A stretch of 63,142 bases of DNA, the filler included, from Octopus bimaculoides (lineage: Eukaryota): NCBI RefSeq assembly GCF_001194135.2. It is 6 parts of 6 records of this genome, joined end to end, with 100 filler letters (N's around TTAATTAATTAA, not from the genome) between each part and the next. Parts side by side here need not be neighbours in the genome. Positions count along the whole stretch, not along the records: positions 1 to 6,297 come from NC_069002.1; positions 6,398 to 25,992 come from NC_068986.1; positions 26,093 to 31,552 come from NC_069005.1; positions 31,653 to 55,083 come from NC_069006.1; 2 more parts are not named here. One strand, given 5' to 3'. The first letter of the stretch is position 1; each line of letters starts with the position of its first letter. Below the pieces are notes generated by a model that did not search any database, was not told the origin of the DNA, and saw only the letters and a program-made list of their open reading frames with translations. Positions 5,781-45,142 of this stretch are shown in pieces. Both the position numbers and the translations under genes were made by a program.

Positions 5781-5825
5781 TGTCGCTGAAGAGGTCACAG
5801 ATGTGCTACGAAAGATTTCCGGACA
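5781..5825 (+). ncRNA. Minimal type-I hammerhead ribozyme-like motif
   Basis: tgtcg CTGAAGA g gtcac agat gtgctac GAAA gatt TC cggaca. CUGANGA, GAAA and UH are intact; helices I and II each carry a bulge. Confidence 0.6.
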
Positions 5826-5969
5826 ATGGACACGAGTTAAATTAATAAAATAAGAACACTAATAAACGAGTGAATAAAAAAATATGACGTGCCTGTGATT
5901 ATATGTATATTTATAGATACACACAAAAAGGCATGTATGAAATTTAGAAAAACATATTGGCTGAAGAAT

Positions 5970-6186
5970 ATTCTTTTTTACTCTAGGTACAAGGCCCGAA
6001 ATTTTGGGGGAGGGGCCAGTCGATTAGATCGGATCCAGTACGCAACTGGCACTTAATTTATAGACCCGAAAAGGATGAAAAGTAAAGTCGGCCCCGGCGG
6101 AATTTGAACCCACAAAGTAAAGACAGACGAAATACTGTTAAGCATTTCGCCCGGGGGTGCTAACGTTTCTGCCGACTCGCCGCCTT
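5970..6186 (-). mobile_element. tRNA-derived SINE family A (Deu/Nin-like central domain)
   Basis: Reverse complement has AAGGCGGCGAGTCGGCAGAAACGTTAGCAC, GGGTTCAAATTCCGCC and CTTTCATCCTTTTCGGGTCTATAAATTAAGTGCCAG; at least 10 copies in the window. Confidence 0.85.
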
Positions 6187-6297
6187 GTTGATTAAAGAGT
6201 TTTTTTACAAACTAGGATATACTTAATGCAATTTGGAAGCTAGAGTCAGTAAGACATAGAGTTTAACATTTAAATTACACATATAAGATATATTAAT

Positions 6298-6397
6298 NNN
6301 NNNNNNNNNNNNNNNNNNNNNNNNNNNNNNNNNNNNNNNNNTTAATTAATTAANNNNNNNNNNNNNNNNNNNNNNNNNNNNNNNNNNNNNNNNNNNN
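6298..6397. other. Artificial scaffold-joining pad (44N-TTAATTAATTAA-44N)
   Basis: Exactly 100 bp with a palindromic six-frame stop linker; identical at five sites. Confidence 0.95.
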
Positions 6398-6613
6398 CTA
6401 TCTTGTGTTTATATATTTATTTAATCTCATCAGGCTTCTCTCTGCTCTTGTAAATGAAATGCAAGTGTATATCAGCTGCAAAGAAAGACTAAATTGAGCC
6501 CTCATTTGCCAAATTTCTCTCTTGTGGTCGGGGCGGAAAGAAGAATGATGATAATTTTTATTCTAGTATTTTAGTGTTTTTTTTATTCATTTTTATATAT
6601 ATATGTATATGTA

Positions 6614-6661
<48 letters not shown>

Positions 6662-6798
6662 TACACATATATATATATATATATTCTGCATTGTAACATT
6701 ATATATGGTGTGTGTGTGTGTCTATAGAGATATAGACTTATATGTGTATCTATATATAGATGTATATATGTATGTATTTATACATATATGTGTGTGCA

Positions 6799-6863
<65 letters not shown>

Positions 6864-8477
6864 TTTTGTGTATTTTCTTTATGGTGATGGTGGTGAAGAT
6901 GTTGACGCTGAAAATGTGATTGAAGAGGCCTACTTGTTTTTTATTAAGTTGTTGTTCAAGACAAGTATAGTGGTAAAAAATATATAGCATTTCTTCACGG
7001 AGAACGAGAGAGGAAGGGAGGGATATAGTGATGATGATAATAATAATAATAATAATGAAGAAGAAGAAGAAATCCAACAAAGAATACAGTTGTGTAGTTT
7101 ACCATTTTTTCTTGAGATAATTATCTCTCGTTTAACACAACATTCTTTTGTGTCATAGCTGCTTACTTGTAACAATAATCTAGTGATGGCAAAATAAACC
7201 AACTTTTTTACAAGAATCGGTTGCACTGCTTTACGACATAGAATATTCAGAAAACAGACATTGTCGTCATTGTTGCTGCTGCTGCTACTGCCACTACCAC
7301 CCACCACTACCACCCACCACCATCACCACCATCATCATTATCATCGTCTTCCTCAGCATCATCATCATCATCATCATAATATTTTGGTCTTGAAATGAAA
7401 AATAAAATATCTTTATTAGTAAATTAGGAGGATCCTTATTGTTTCTTCTTTTCTTGTCCGAGGAACTTATCCAAGAAAGAAAAAAAAAAGAATTAAATAA
7501 CTAAAAAATGAATATAAAAAATATAGAACAAACATAATTGTTCATTGTGTTGTTGCTATTATTGATGGTATTGTTGTTTCTGTGTATCTTTTATTTTTCT
7601 AATGCACCATTTTATATAATGAGGTTGATGATGATGCAATGGTGGTAAGGATGATGGTGGTGGTGATGATGATGATGGTGGTTGTGGTAGTAGTAGTAGC
7701 AGCAGCAGCAGCAATTAGGTGCTGCGGAACTTGTAGGAAATTAAATTTAGGTTGCCTGACCCATCAGAAAATATGCATTTTTTGAAAAAGATCAAACCTT
7801 TTGTGTTCAGATTAACCTGTCAAATGTAATGCTTGTTTATTCATGATATTTTGAATTATTCAGGTTCAAGAGGGGTGGCCACAATATTTGCTTGTAATTT
7901 TGTTAATTTTTTTTACATACAAGTTTGAAATTTTGTCAACAGGTGCTTATATACCAGTGGATTATAGTTATGTAATTTTAGCTGATCTTGCTAATTTAAT
8001 TTGACTTTTATGGGCAGGTAAATTTAATTAACAGGTGTAAAAGCAATAACATTATGGATAAACACTAAAATTGAAATTCTTCCTGTTTGATTTGTTACTA
8101 AAATTATTCTAGATGTCAACCGCTAACAATTTTGCCACTTTTCAAGATGAGGTACATTAATTTGAATTAATTAAAATACAGGTATAATCAGTACAAGATT
8201 TTATTCTTTCTTTATATTCCATTCAAGCATTTTCATTGAAAATAAAGTACAAAACTCTTTTACTAGTCAGTATACCATTGGCTGTGTACTCTTATACAAT
8301 TTAATGAATACATTTACATAACGGAATGCATCTGATTAAAATAAAAGCTCATTAAGGCAAAGGTGAATGCAGGTGTGTAAGATACTGAAAATTAATTTGT
8401 ATTTCTCATTTTCACATATTATTTGTAATAAAATGAAAGGAATATATGATTGTATTACTATCAAACAACAAAATATA

Positions 8478-42554: not shown

Positions 42555-42596
<42 letters not shown>

Positions 42597-43103
42597 CTTT
42601 TATGTGCATTTTCCCATGCAAGCAAGACATGAGGCAGATCAATATATTATCAAGGCCTCATTTTTACAGCTGGATGCCCTTCCTGTCATCAACTCACACT
42701 TGTTTAGTGAATGATTTGTTGACAGGGGAAATGACAAAATTGTCACTACTTTGTACCTAAGTAATTGTAAACACATCCACACAATGAGGTTTTGCAGAGC
42801 CACCTGAGGATTAGCCTGGGGTTAATAGTGGAAGACACTGGCCCAAGGTGTTGTCCAATGGGATTGAACCCAAAACCCTGTAGTCAGGAAACGCACATCT
42901 TAAACTTCTTAACCACATACATGTGATGTTTATCCCTTTTCCCCTGCTTGACAGACAGTGTTGGTTTGTTTGTCCTTGTCACTTAGCAGTTCAACAAAGA
43001 CGATCAACACAAAGTACACCAGATTTTCAAAAATAAGTCCTGGCGTCGATTTGTTTGACTAAAATCCTTTTGAGGTGGTGCCCTAACAAGCAAAAGATAA
43101 ACA

Positions 43104-43320
43104 TCATCATCGTCATCATCATCATTTAACGTCTGCTTTCCATGCTGGGTATGGGTTGGATGGTTTCACCAGGACTGGTAAGCTGGAAGGCTGCACCAAA
43201 CTCCAGTCTGATTTGGTATGGTTTGTCTACAGCTGGATGCCCTTCTTAATGCCAACCACTCCAAGAGTGTAGTGGGTGCTTTTATGTGCCACTGGCATGG
43301 GTGCCATTTGCGTGACGCAT
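43104..43320 (-). mobile_element. RTE LINE 3' end
   Basis: Family match with (CAT)n tail. Confidence 0.8.
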
Positions 43321-43430
43321 TCAACAAATAACTAATCACAGATTAAAATAAAAGGGGATGATTTAACAACTCAATAAATCACAGTTTGATGGAAAACAAT
43401 GAATACATAAACAAAAAACTGATGTCTATA

Positions 43431-44030
43431 CTGTAATCCCTTGACTATTGCGTGTTATGTTCTAAAACCTCTCGTGATAGGTGAAAATTAATGAAGTAGA
43501 AACAGTTTTGTACTGTGTATTTTTTAAAATTATTTTCCTAATTTGTATATACTCTATTTTTTTACTTGTTTCAGTCATTTGACTGTGGCCATGCTGGAGC
43601 ACCGCTTTTAGTCGAGCAAATCAACCCCAGGACTTATTCGTTGTAAGCCTACTACTTATTCTATCGGTCTCTTTTGCCAAACCGCTAAGCTACGGGGACG
43701 TAAACACACCAGCATCGGTTGTCAAGTGATGTTGGGGGGACAAACACAGACACACACACATATATACGACGGGCTTCTTTCAGTTTCCATCTACCAAATA
43801 CACTCACAAGGCTTTGGTCGGCCTGAGGCTATAGTAGAAGACACTTGCCCAAGGTGCTACGCAGTGGGACTGAACCCAGAACCATGTGGTTGGTAAGCAA
43901 GTTACTTACCACACAGCCACTCCTGTGTCTATATTTATTTTATTATAAATGCAAAACACCACAGAGGAATCAACACAAGCTAAAATAGTGAACCACGATA
44001 GGTGACCCATGACATGATGAGGGATTACTG
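43431..44030. mobile_element. Tc1/pogo-like MITE containing a nested SINE
   Basis: TA|CTGTAATCCCTTGA...TGAGGGATTACTG|TA; internal sequence shared with 36220-36384. Confidence 0.75.
43557..43925 (-). mobile_element. Full-length SINE family C/D with a short internal microsatellite
   Basis: Head CAGGAGTGGCTGTGTGGTAAG...GGGTTCAGTCCCACTGCGTAGC, then (TA)(TG) spacer, then a 3' module ending GACTGAAACAAGTAAAA. Confidence 0.88.
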
Positions 44031-44407
44031 TACACACACACCCCAACATATACACACACTTGTGTAAGGTTACTGGTCTAACGAGGTATCTTGTTGATAG
44101 TTAACAAGATAGGGGATTAATCTGTTACGAATTTAGCAGTTGTCTGCCCTTGGGCAGGTCCTGTGCATGTGAACCTTCTCCAGCACCTGGGAAGGCCTGT
44201 ACCCACCCCATCTACCATTGAGTTATTGGGTTGGTGCAGGCAGAAGAGTGGCAGAACAGTTGCGGCATTAGCAGAGATGCTTCATGGTATATCTTCCTCT
44301 TCTCCGTGTTCTGAGTTCAAATCCCACCTGCCTGGAGAAGGCAACGGGGAAATCATTCCATTATTCATCCCAAGTGTAGTCAAGGCAACAAAAGTTCCAA
44401 TAATCTA

Positions 44408-44585
44408 TTGGGTTGCTGCATAATTATTGCGGCTTTTTTTCGACAAATTTTATTAAAAAAAAAAACAATAACAACATGTAACAAAAACATCTTTAAATGG
44501 TTATTCTGGAGCATATTCACCATCTACTTCAATTACTGCTTCCCATTTGCTTGGCAGACGATCAGACCGTCCTCGAAGCGTTTTA
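44408..44585 (-). mobile_element. Mariner 3' end fragment
   Basis: TA|TTGGGTTGCTGCATAATTATTGCGG TIR; minus strand encodes RLPSKWEAVIEVDGEYAPE*, like the mariner C-terminal LPxRWxxVIxxDGxY. Confidence 0.75.
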
Positions 44586-44884
44586 CATAAGTGATGATAT
44601 GAGAAACAGGTCTGTACAGTAAATAGGGCCCAACATCTCACGCACACACAGAGAAGAAAAACCTTATCTCCTTCAAAGATGAAGGAGATCAGAAATCCAA
44701 AAGAGGCTAGAGATAAGTTTGAGATAATTGAAGCTGACAAGCAAATAGTTTTGTTTCTCACATTTAGAGTTTGGGTTAAAAAGAGAAAAAAAACTCTGCT
44801 TTCATTAATTCAATAACTCATTTGATAGTCTATAGAATTAATTAAAGTGTAGTGTTTCTTTGCTAATACATTAAATCTGTTATG

Positions 44885-45142
44885 TTGTGTCTGGGAAGAG
44901 ACATATTCTCTTAGTGCCTTAATATCTAACACACTCACTGGTTTGATTTCTACTCGTTTATTTTCATTGCTTTTTGCAACCTTGTCAATGGATGTTGACT
45001 CTGAGAGCTAACATCCATTGACAAGGTTGCAAAAAGCAACGAAAATTTTGGAAGGAAATAAAAAAAAGATAATAAATGAGTGGAAATCGAACCAGTGAGT
45101 GTGTTAGATATTCAGGCATTAAGACAGACTCTCCAGACACAA
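44885..45142. repeat. 258-bp foldback palindrome with a perfect 30-bp inner stem
   Basis: 44967-44996 is the exact reverse complement of 45010-45039, with a 13-nt loop; the outer arms are also complementary. Confidence 0.92.
45014..45052 (+). ncRNA. Minimal hammerhead-like motif with a U3-A8 variant core
   Basis: tcca TTGACAA g gttgc aaaaa gcaac GAAA a ttt tgga. Helix I (4 bp) and helix II (5 bp) are perfect. Confidence 0.5.

Follow-up and report, generated by a model that had tools for sequence, protein, structure and literature searches.

The window analysed here, a 63,142-nucleotide stretch of Octopus bimaculoides DNA (filler included), probably holds decayed copies of three short repeats, B, C and D, that carry a minimal hammerhead of the type known from Penelope-like elements (PLEs) and are likely to have been inserted by PLE enzymes as head-to-head pairs. 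C represents a high-copy family with a tRNA-like head and is likely a non-autonomous, SINE-like passenger of those enzymes. Outward-reading minimal hammerheads in palindromes are a known signature of truncated PLEs; the novelty lies in family C, of which we did not find a published description in the literature.

Minimal hammerheads in paired arms

A first-pass annotation had proposed four hammerhead layouts, three palindromes from whose centres the motifs read outward, and a PLE endonuclease relic. The corresponding features outside family C are as follows.

5781–5825, + strand: motif A, possible decayed minimal hammerhead with bulged helices I and II, borderline against shuffles
28320–28447, + strand: third copy of family B, more decayed and cut by an assembly gap (blastn E 5e-12, 71% identity; alignment)
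30505–30830, + strand: PLE GIY-YIG endonuclease relic with one stop codon (homology)
33575–33582 and 33879–33886, no strand: 8-bp direct repeat, likely target-site duplication of B (flank comparison)
33583–33599, − strand: tail-like 17-nt extension on one B arm only (sequence, alignment), of presumed element origin
33600–33876, no strand: element B, two head-to-head arms of ~138 nt each (84% identity)
33692–33734, − strand: motif B, left arm, sense to SH2B, core intact
33743–33785, + strand: motif B, right arm, with G8 and U16.1 altered (sequence, alignment)
44885–45142, no strand: element D, head-to-head arms (91% identity over aligned columns)
44962–44992, − strand: motif D, left arm, sense to SH2B, retaining core, helix II and GAAA
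45014–45052, + strand: motif D, right arm, complete U3-A8 minimal hammerhead, antisense to SH2B (descriptor, helix energy)

All four layouts lie where they had been placed, but their quality is unequal: D is complete, B decayed, A borderline, and the core of the C copy is broken. Likewise, the palindromes at 33600–33876, 42409–42554 and 44885–45142 are real (arm identities of 116/138, 63/73 and 101/111) and the motifs do read outward from their centres, but there is no ribozyme inside the palindrome of C, motif C falling outside it, and A sits in none. The CUGANGA (or U3-A8) core, GAAA and UH are present together in motif A, in the right arm of D, in the left arm of B and in the majority sequence of family C; motif inspection did not find this full set in the C window copy, the B right arm or the D left arm. 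An extra nucleotide after A9 and a G10.1-C11.1 pair are shared by A, D and the C majority, and the helix III stub is palindromic in D (AAUU), the C majority (ACGU) and the three-copy majority of B (AUCGCGAU), and near-palindromic in A.

Motif D combines a 4-bp helix I, the U3-A8 core, the extra nucleotide, a 5-bp helix II and the AAUU palindrome. It was the sole match of a relaxed-core descriptor run over the window (0 matches in 30 shuffles), and its constrained helix energy is −6.6 kcal/mol, with −5 reached by none of 392 shuffles. Both arms of D retain the U3-A8 core; in the arm alignment, the left arm has a 27-nt gap where the cleavage site and the helix I 3′ strand would be. Flank comparison revealed no clear target duplication around D.

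The left-arm motif of B keeps its core, GAAA, 5-bp helix I and UA, together with a mismatched helix II and a near-palindromic 6-nt loop III, and does not match strict hammerhead descriptors. Alignment of the three B copies in the window indicates that the closing pair of helix II is likely A-U, and they differ in loop III as a UCGCGA palindrome would after CpG decay. Both the one-sided extension of B and its flanking 8-bp repeat are directly visible; random flank pairs shared an 8-mer in 184 of 16190 trials (~1%). Motif A, which follows directly on a (TA)n run and occurs only once in the window, could have arisen by chance, with a helix energy of +1.8 and an equally good match in 25 of 430 shuffles. 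Requiring the extra nucleotide and G10.1-C11.1, a post hoc criterion, lowered this to 2/430.

The long terminal complementarity of the palindromes could suggest MITE-like foldback DNA transposons in which hammerhead layouts are chance or incidental, as could the weakness of motif A and the Rfam search of the window, which returned no family at gathering score and no hammerhead among the 150 of 358 E-value matches listed. We regard this reading as very improbable and, for C and D, as largely refuted already: D exceeds all 392 shuffles, the C majority restores core and helices, and single arms and one-sided tails are unlike the products of cut-and-paste elements.

Under PLE-type insertion, B and D are ordinary, because truncated PLE insertions are already known from the literature to show opposite-strand motif pairs, arms placed head to head, a tail on one side and a short target duplication. 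Dual minimal hammerheads on opposite strands, ~100–700 bp apart, already appear in the available portion of Cervera & de la Peña 2014 (PMC4209133). The proposal that these are non-autonomous families finds support for C only, B and D being more simply truncated pseudo-LTR (pLTR) pairs. The endonuclease relic is indeed present, at ~30505–30830 on the + strand, but is physically part of none of the hammerhead elements; no same-strand hammerhead lies beside it, and a CxCX5C linker like that of the Hydra clade is found in its relatives.

Family C

Family C was characterised from 10054 contigs of a DNA run of the same species, 2947 contigs of a second species, and 9942 and 8138 reads drawn from ~6% of two RNA runs. 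Below, X1 and X17 denote contig records, X21 reads, and X22 a data set compared with them at the 3′ end.

42250–42487, − strand: family C unit, comprising tRNA-like head, (AAT)n linker, pLTR-like hammerhead body and a sharp 3′ end at 42250/42251 (read depth, loose ends, pieces)
42298–42343, − strand: motif C, window copy, with four ribozyme changes, one of them at A13, against a full minimal hammerhead in the family majority (read majority)
42409–42487, − strand: tRNA-like head, left arm, whose A and B boxes are restored in the family majority (read majority)
42482–42596, + strand: inverted second head and (AAT)n run with no hammerhead after it (strict A box at 42486, with the B box 33 nt downstream)

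The window copy has GUAA in place of GAAA and a broken helix I. The family majority, read as per-position letters without phase, restores helix I, C11.1, G16.2 and, in 85% of X21 reads and 99% of X1 depth, A13. In the motif that results, helices I and II are 5 bp each, helix II being closed by G-C; it has CUGAUGA with an extra A, then GAAA, and the ACGU palindrome, at a motif energy of −8.4 kcal/mol. It fits the PLE minimal-hammerhead consensus and the Lottia examples in the published material available to us, which, along with the inverted-pLTR, tail-like and likely target-duplication anatomy of B, supports the link to PLEs made in the first-pass annotation.

Family C ends sharply at 42250/42251, where 199 X1 contigs pass into mixed flanks. 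Beyond this point, 1425 X21 reads instead share one loose-end consensus (agreement 0.62), as do X22 and X17 similarly, so that the 3′ tail is optional. Flank comparison gave a target-duplication candidate of 5–6 bp.

The palindrome of C, as the earlier annotation overlooked, is a pair of tRNA-like heads. A strict A and B box pair occurs at 42486 on the + strand and in the majority left arm, and in 0 of 430 shuffles; a looser pattern was not significant (26/150 shuffles). Searches of the head found neither an Rfam tRNA match nor a phage tRNA match, and ARAGORN called it only at 80–85% of its threshold, with three different anticodons.

Does the head belong to the unit? All elements, C included, could be 5′-truncated ends of autonomous PLEs, with the head a separate SINE or part of a PLE 3′ UTR that adjoins through a shared (AAT)n. 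Most metazoan minimal hammerheads are single motifs of truncated PLEs in the literature accessible to us, and PLEs make up 6.83% of the O. vulgaris assembly. Moreover, depth over the C body is ~2x that over the head, head-only and body-only records are evident from loose ends at 42393 and 42407, and the right arm of C is head-only, ending at (AAT)n and thus 3′-truncated rather than 5′-truncated. Other sequence past the linker in 64 X1 and 26 X17 contigs implies many bodies without this head. Against this, pieces bridging body, linker and head occur in two species (X1 42371–42487; X17 42331–42428 and 42349–42452), depth declines smoothly through the linker, and it drops at the 5′ end of the head, partly as an edge effect. 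Inverted partners of several lengths recur at the head end, where five different opposite-strand joints connect 42348, 42352, 42376, 42430 and 42434 to 42481–42488, as expected for the start of a unit. No contig spanned the whole C unit among the 16 of 13052 records listed. Among the material covered, no autonomous octopus PLE with a 3′ end in common with B, C or D came to light. Taken together, we consider the truncated-end explanation unlikely. What is directly observed for C is a hammerhead in the family majority, linkage of head to body, a 3′ end at a constant position with the tail optional, and inverted partners that recur at the 5′ end.

Sm-alpha likewise places a hammerhead after a Pol III-type promoter, and animal retrozymes have been argued, in the literature as far as it was accessible, to derive from PLE pLTRs. 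Family C could accordingly be a retrozyme like Sm-alpha, with tandem Pol III units self-cleaved to monomers and circles and copied by rolling-circle reverse transcription. This is less probable still: there are no head-to-tail tandem C units in the window, no 3′-end-to-head joint occurs among the 15 of 46 joints listed, and C copies have their fixed ends at the head and at 42250 rather than where the ribozyme would cleave. Two cDNA libraries, of a kind that hardly shows such RNA ends, contained no pile-up at the C cleavage site. Nothing was observed in favour of the term "retrozyme-like", in its tandem, circular-RNA sense, that had been suggested for these elements.

We favour a passenger of PLE enzymes. 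A PLE RT/GIY-YIG protein would bind the pLTR-like end of the uncleaved RNA, which is the likely template because cleavage would remove the 3′ end kept in genomic copies. Reverse transcription would start at one of two sites, yielding copies with or without the tail, and a second copy, inverted and 5′-truncated, would be laid down at the same target. Transcripts of family C may be initiated by RNA polymerase III within the head and extend as far as the tail; four consecutive T do not occur in the majority sense strand. The hammerhead may be a dimer- or protein-assisted motif inherited along with the pLTR. The family is short (~240 nt), non-coding and present in >10,000 contig records of one DNA run, a record count that does not equal copy number. 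It is abundant in RNA reads, with mates equal on both strands and no visible transcript start. In its strongest form, the proposal is that C is a true SINE of PLEs: a putative Pol III, tRNA-headed RNA with a PLE pLTR end (minimal hammerhead and RT-initiation tail), which PLE enzymes spread as scattered and head-to-head copies that form no tandem arrays, at very high copy in at least two Octopus-related species and with the majority ribozyme intact. To this full form we give roughly even chances.

Intronic copies and the SH2B pre-mRNA

45369–45569, − strand: SH2B coding exon, 100% identical to Octopus SH2B
41536–41745, − strand: SH2B exon, first part of the SH2 domain (homology)
32472–32708, − strand: likely last SH2B coding exon, with a C-terminus like cuttlefish, oyster and abalone SH2B

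As previously noted, three elements lie in SH2B introns: C and D between the first two exons above, and B likely in a later intron. This location had suggested that active copies could cut or regulate the SH2B pre-mRNA, which we consider highly improbable, since the complete D motif is antisense, each of the three sense copies carries damage, and long hairpins are predicted to enclose motifs B and D (−186.5 and −152.8 kcal/mol, respectively). Specifically, the sense arm of D has no cleavage site, the C window copy has lost A13, and the B sense motif has a broken helix II. A dimer in cis would require a partner, and no family has a second sense copy nearby; even intact PLE motifs are weak cleavers, according to the literature available to us. 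The SH2B-intron copies are likely inert fossils, too damaged or wrongly oriented to cut host RNA. The host-gene cleavage idea does not hold for the window copies; family C could matter.

Significance and relation to known systems

Classical SINEs have a 3′ end derived from LINEs. Because they are classically LINE passengers, a tRNA-headed passenger with PLE-type ends would, if confirmed, extend the SINE–partner relation to PLEs. Octopus tRNA-derived SINEs OK, OR1 and OR2 are said to have been described by Ohshima and Okada in 1994; family C resembles them in its tRNA-like head with A and B boxes and its high copy number, but, unlike classical SINEs, has at its 3′ end a pLTR-like part that carries a hammerhead. 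Such a passenger would have consequences for octopus SINE classification too, where 893 of 900 recently active families of O. vulgaris are unclassified in the source portion accessible to us. If the proposal is correct, C would define, in ~270 nt, the cis sequence needed by a PLE enzyme, and would offer a simple substrate with which to address the open issue of what purpose the PLE hammerhead serves, since cleavage would sever the end needed for copying.

The motifs resemble the type-I minimal hammerheads of PLE pLTRs, as far as the accessible sections of PMC4209133 describe them, in the CUGANGA or U3-A8 core, the extra nucleotide before helix II, G10.1-C11.1, the palindromic helix III stub, the short helix I and the opposite-strand dual motifs. 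Those hammerheads form many unrelated families per genome, and molluscs (Lottia, Crassostrea) are among their hosts; Octopus is not named in the available part of supplement file 2. They differ from C, which has a tRNA-like head, and from B, with its 6-nt loop III and likely A-U closing pair in helix II. The available supplement text of Craig 2021 (PMC8557442) does not contain four short motifs taken from A–D.

Compared with EN+ PLE inverted-pLTR insertions, as represented in the accessible parts of PMC3846280, PMC8557442 and PMC11167929, the elements share head-to-head arms, a 5′-truncated inverted partner and an optional tail at one end. B in particular, with inverted pLTR, tail-like piece and a likely target-site duplication within the published 8–10 bp, recalls insertions in Adineta (PMC3846280), Craig 2021 and Frangieh 2024. 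RNA-seq ends at the ribozyme site were seen neither there nor here. In contrast to those insertions, there is no ORF between the arms, the tail-like piece of B is 17 nt rather than 30–40 nt, and the partner PLE is putative.

Sm-alpha and Sj-alpha (available sections of PMC6765202 and PMC8490949) are, like family C, short non-coding repeats in which a type-I hammerhead comes after a Pol III-type promoter. Sm-alpha spreads by way of tandem multimers that are cut into monomers, whereas C copies are single or head-to-head, their motif is of the minimal PLE type, and their 3′ end is at a fixed position, with a tail being optional. Animal non-LTR retrozymes (PMC7229834 and Li et al. 2026, 10.64898/2026.07.22.740005, each as far as available) are likewise non-coding, carry a type-I hammerhead and have been proposed to depend on PLE enzymes; the main text of Li et al. 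nowhere uses the word "tRNA". Such retrozymes are defined by tandem units and circular RNA, neither of which was observed for C in the reads and window sequence.

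Hammerhead motifs in the window and the B and D arm pairs

Four minimal hammerhead layouts, each named here by a letter that also denotes its element or family, had been proposed in the first-pass annotation:

5781, plus strand: motif A
33692, minus strand: motif B, palindrome 33600-33876
42298, minus strand: motif C, palindrome 42409-42554
45014, plus strand: motif D, palindrome 44885-45142

A strict descriptor of the canonical hammerhead gave no match in the window. When the descriptor was relaxed for U3-A8 and one extra base, a variant already given by Cervera & de la Pena in the available text of PMC4209133, motif D was the sole match, and 30 local dinucleotide shuffles yielded none. 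The constrained helix energy of D was -6.6 kcal/mol, with -5 reached by 0 of 392 shuffles. Motif A scored +1.8, which 25 of 430 shuffles equalled (2 of 430 under a post hoc requirement for the extra base and G10.1-C11.1), and no second copy of it was found in the window; it is a plausible candidate hammerhead. A mismatch-tolerant scan (score at least 8) returned four matches, versus a mean of 0.49 over 223 shuffles:

45014, plus strand: motif D
Left arm of element B: motif B
54544, minus strand: further match
31158, minus strand: further match

Motif B occurs three times, in its two arms and at 28320-28447, and the loop-III variants of these copies form the pattern expected from CpG decay of a single palindrome. 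The window copy of motif C carries GUAA in place of GAAA. The proposed layouts are complete in D, decayed in B, borderline for A and broken in the window copy of C. Rfam models run over the window gave nothing at gathering score, and the E-value listing consisted mostly of miRNA models driven by microsatellites.

The two further matches both lie on the minus strand. That at 31120-31163 may be a decayed minimal hammerhead, the fifth in the window; it has a changed A9, no loop III and a UC site, its helices are explicable by CpG decay, and it is flanked by two (AAT)n runs. The layout at 54516-54544 has a U3-A8 core, a weak helix II and a relaxed-scan score of 8, and is probably due to chance.

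B and D are head-to-head arm pairs (arm identity 84% and 91%, respectively) whose arms start ~10-15 nt upstream of the hammerhead core. An 8-bp direct repeat flanks B on both sides (of 16190 trials with random flanks, 184 gave a shared 8-mer), and one of the two B arms carries a 17-nt extension that the other lacks. Insertions of Penelope-like elements (PLEs) are reported to carry a 5'-truncated partner in inverted orientation, in some cases a tail, and a target-site duplication of 8-10 bp (PMC8557442, PMC3846280), the tail being attributed to two reverse transcriptase (RT) start sites (PMC11167929). B matches such insertions in its inverted arm partner, its tail-like one-sided extension and its flanking repeat, a likely target-site duplication. 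Dual minimal hammerheads on opposite strands, 100-700 bp apart, appear in the available text of Cervera & de la Pena (PMC4209133), and B and D are most simply classed as new members of this known PLE kind. Of the three palindromes, those of B and D hold hammerhead motifs in their arms, and that at 42409-42554 comprises two heads of family C and no ribozyme.

SH2B setting and the endonuclease relic

The SH2 exon matches SH2B of O. sinensis and O. vulgaris at 100% identity, and the following exons were located:

45369-45569, minus strand: SH2B exon
41536-41745, minus strand: SH2B exon
32472-32708, minus strand: likely last SH2B exon

From these positions, C and D are intronic and B probably so, in line with the earlier placement of three motifs in SH2B introns, and A lies ~27 kb past the likely final exon. 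The window yielded no exon for the remainder of the SH2 domain; the missing exon or exons, encoding its second half, may fall in an assembly gap, and the gaps 32822-33301 and 37078-37285 are possible hiding places. An SH2B intron also houses a decayed LINE (37577-40315, plus strand; Pfam RVT_1, E 4e-23 for the reverse transcriptase domain), antisense to the gene.

The suggestion that an active copy could cut the SH2B pre-mRNA was not upheld. Only minus-strand motifs are present in this transcript, and there a 27-nt gap has removed the cleavage site from the sense arm of D, A13 is lost from the window copy of C, and the sense motif of B has a mismatched helix II. In the predicted hairpins of B (-186.5 kcal/mol) and D (-152.8 kcal/mol, folded on the plus strand), the core is paired with its antisense copy; such a foldback arrangement would keep the ribozyme silent instead of aiding it.

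The PLE endonuclease relic at 30505-30830 (plus strand) is genuine: full HMMER found 18 protein relatives (best E 2.4e-9), one of them from O. vulgaris, although Pfam gave no match and a word-indexed protein search missed it. These relatives include the end of the RT and a CxCX5C linker, a mark of the Hydra clade. With the relatives as queries, tblastn revealed no further PLE coding sequence anywhere in the window. A link between the relic and B or its third copy was rejected, as the stretch separating them contains no RT. The relic is evidence that PLEs of this type were present in the Octopus genome, and does not show that they moved the hammerhead elements. The fifth hammerhead candidate lies ~300 bp downstream of it, on the opposite strand.

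Family C unit and its majority sequence

Of the four motifs, only C was surveyed in reads and contigs, by matching 42215-42490 at 80% likeness to two raw RNA runs chosen by species label (X21, X22), DNA contigs of the same species (X1) and contigs of a second species (X17). This stretch drew 9942 and 8138 RNA reads from ~6% of each run, and 10054 same-species and 2947 second-species contigs, counts that belong in part to a different SINE at its left edge. Two family-C patterns found no match in metagenome contigs, nor did one in viral contigs.

Majority letters, drawn from 40 of 78 variant rows, alter 21 of 241 positions of C and restore A13 (85% of X21 reads, 99% of X1 depth), C11.1, G16.2 and helix I. 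The resulting hammerhead scores -8.4 kcal/mol and fits the published minimal-hammerhead consensus, with a C-G-U-U stub as in the Lottia examples. Because core and helix I are restored and fit this consensus, the idea that the family consensus lacks a core fails for C, and the proposed hammerhead is present in its majority sequence.

The unit (42250-42487, minus strand) comprises a tRNA-like head, an (AAT)n linker and a body resembling a PLE pseudo-LTR (pLTR) that contains the hammerhead. Its 3' end is sharp at 42250/42251, where 199 X1 contigs enter mixed flanks (agreement 0.47). At the same end, 1425 X21 reads share one loose-end consensus (agreement 0.62), with similar results in X22 and X17; a common loose end beside mixed flanks is as would be expected of an optional tail. 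Pieces bridge body, linker and head in both species, and none of the 16 pieces listed, of 13052, spans the whole unit. Opposite-strand joints connect the 5' end of the head (42481-42488) to five different inner positions; the family thus shows repeated cases of inverted partners truncated at the 5' end.

Scanned with the established A and B box consensus, the head contains a strict A box followed, after 33 nt, by a B box, a combination found in 0 of 430 shuffles. We word it "tRNA-like" because ARAGORN called a tRNA only at a lowered threshold and Rfam gave no tRNA match to the head; blastn of the head against phages returned only noise (E=8). The body is ~2x as deep as the head, and the sequence past the linker is different in 64 X1 and 26 X17 contigs; both observations argue against a uniform unit. 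At 42407, the 26 second-species contigs share a common different sequence past the linker (agreement 0.65), which may be a second type of head or the autonomous partner.

A depth dip at 42305-42314 was rejected as a sign of cleavage, since four changes private to the reference copy fall at the same place and DNA contigs show the dip too. At 42273, 42289, 42352 and 42382, A>G or T>C occurs in 13-27% of RNA reads versus <1% of DNA contig depth. Foldback RNA may have undergone A-to-I editing here, or a small number of expressed copies may have variants of their own; we did not call these rows editing, given that C>T and G>A rows also rise and that a small set of loci with high expression might explain them. 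At 42251, 851 X21 and 623 X22 reads have one common flank (agreement at least 0.9), which is a single highly expressed transcript carrying a family-C copy.

Several other repeats were observed in the window. Family C is inserted into a SINE-like repeat of high abundance (this copy at 42078-42250; related copies at 5964-6190, 10483-10758, 13197-13421, 52171-52388 and elsewhere), which reads show running on past 42247-42250. Another repeat (27885-28026, minus strand; related copies 51074-51218 and 62181-62328) has a tRNA-like head with strict A and B boxes at 28015, minus strand. A young family (up to 95% identical) at 22918-23307, 24479-24775, 25635-25881, 26093-26398, 27705-27887 and 56376-56786 includes an inverted pair (25636-26398), and no hammerhead layout was found in it. 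Clustered inverted copies of a further high-copy repeat occupy 9552-10308, 40619-40999 and 22024-22716, and the window contains around twelve copies of this repeat.

Proposed mobilization and known systems

We propose that RNA polymerase III would start in the C head and read through the sense strand, which in the majority sequence is without TTTT. A PLE protein would recognize the pLTR-like end of this RNA, reverse transcription would begin at one of two sites, and the PLE machinery would often write a second, inverted copy. The template RNA was likely uncleaved, judging from genomic copies, which still have ~50 nt on the 3' side of the cleavage site. This agrees with the Anolis PLE, which, in the available text of PMC11167929, uses unprocessed RNA and has a ribozyme that requires protein. 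Because the RNA runs revealed no site with many RNA starts or ends on C and read mates fell equally on both strands, the polymerase III transcript and in vivo cleavage remain predictions.

The general observation of outward-reading minimal hammerheads in palindromes is already known. Within the open-access literature searched, we found no description of a tRNA-headed or SINE-like PLE passenger, of octopus or cephalopod hammerheads, or of a dispersed tRNA-headed hammerhead element with PLE-type ends; the accessible text and supplement terms of a 2026 O. vulgaris repeat paper do not mention hammerheads or ribozymes. Family C may already be catalogued. Overall, the features are real and mostly ordinary, with one family, C, as a likely new variant. 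Its nearest known cases, as described in the portions of these reports available, are Sm-alpha (PMC6765202, PMC8490949) and the non-LTR retrozymes (PMC7229834), both of which are tandem; family C appears as dispersed copies.
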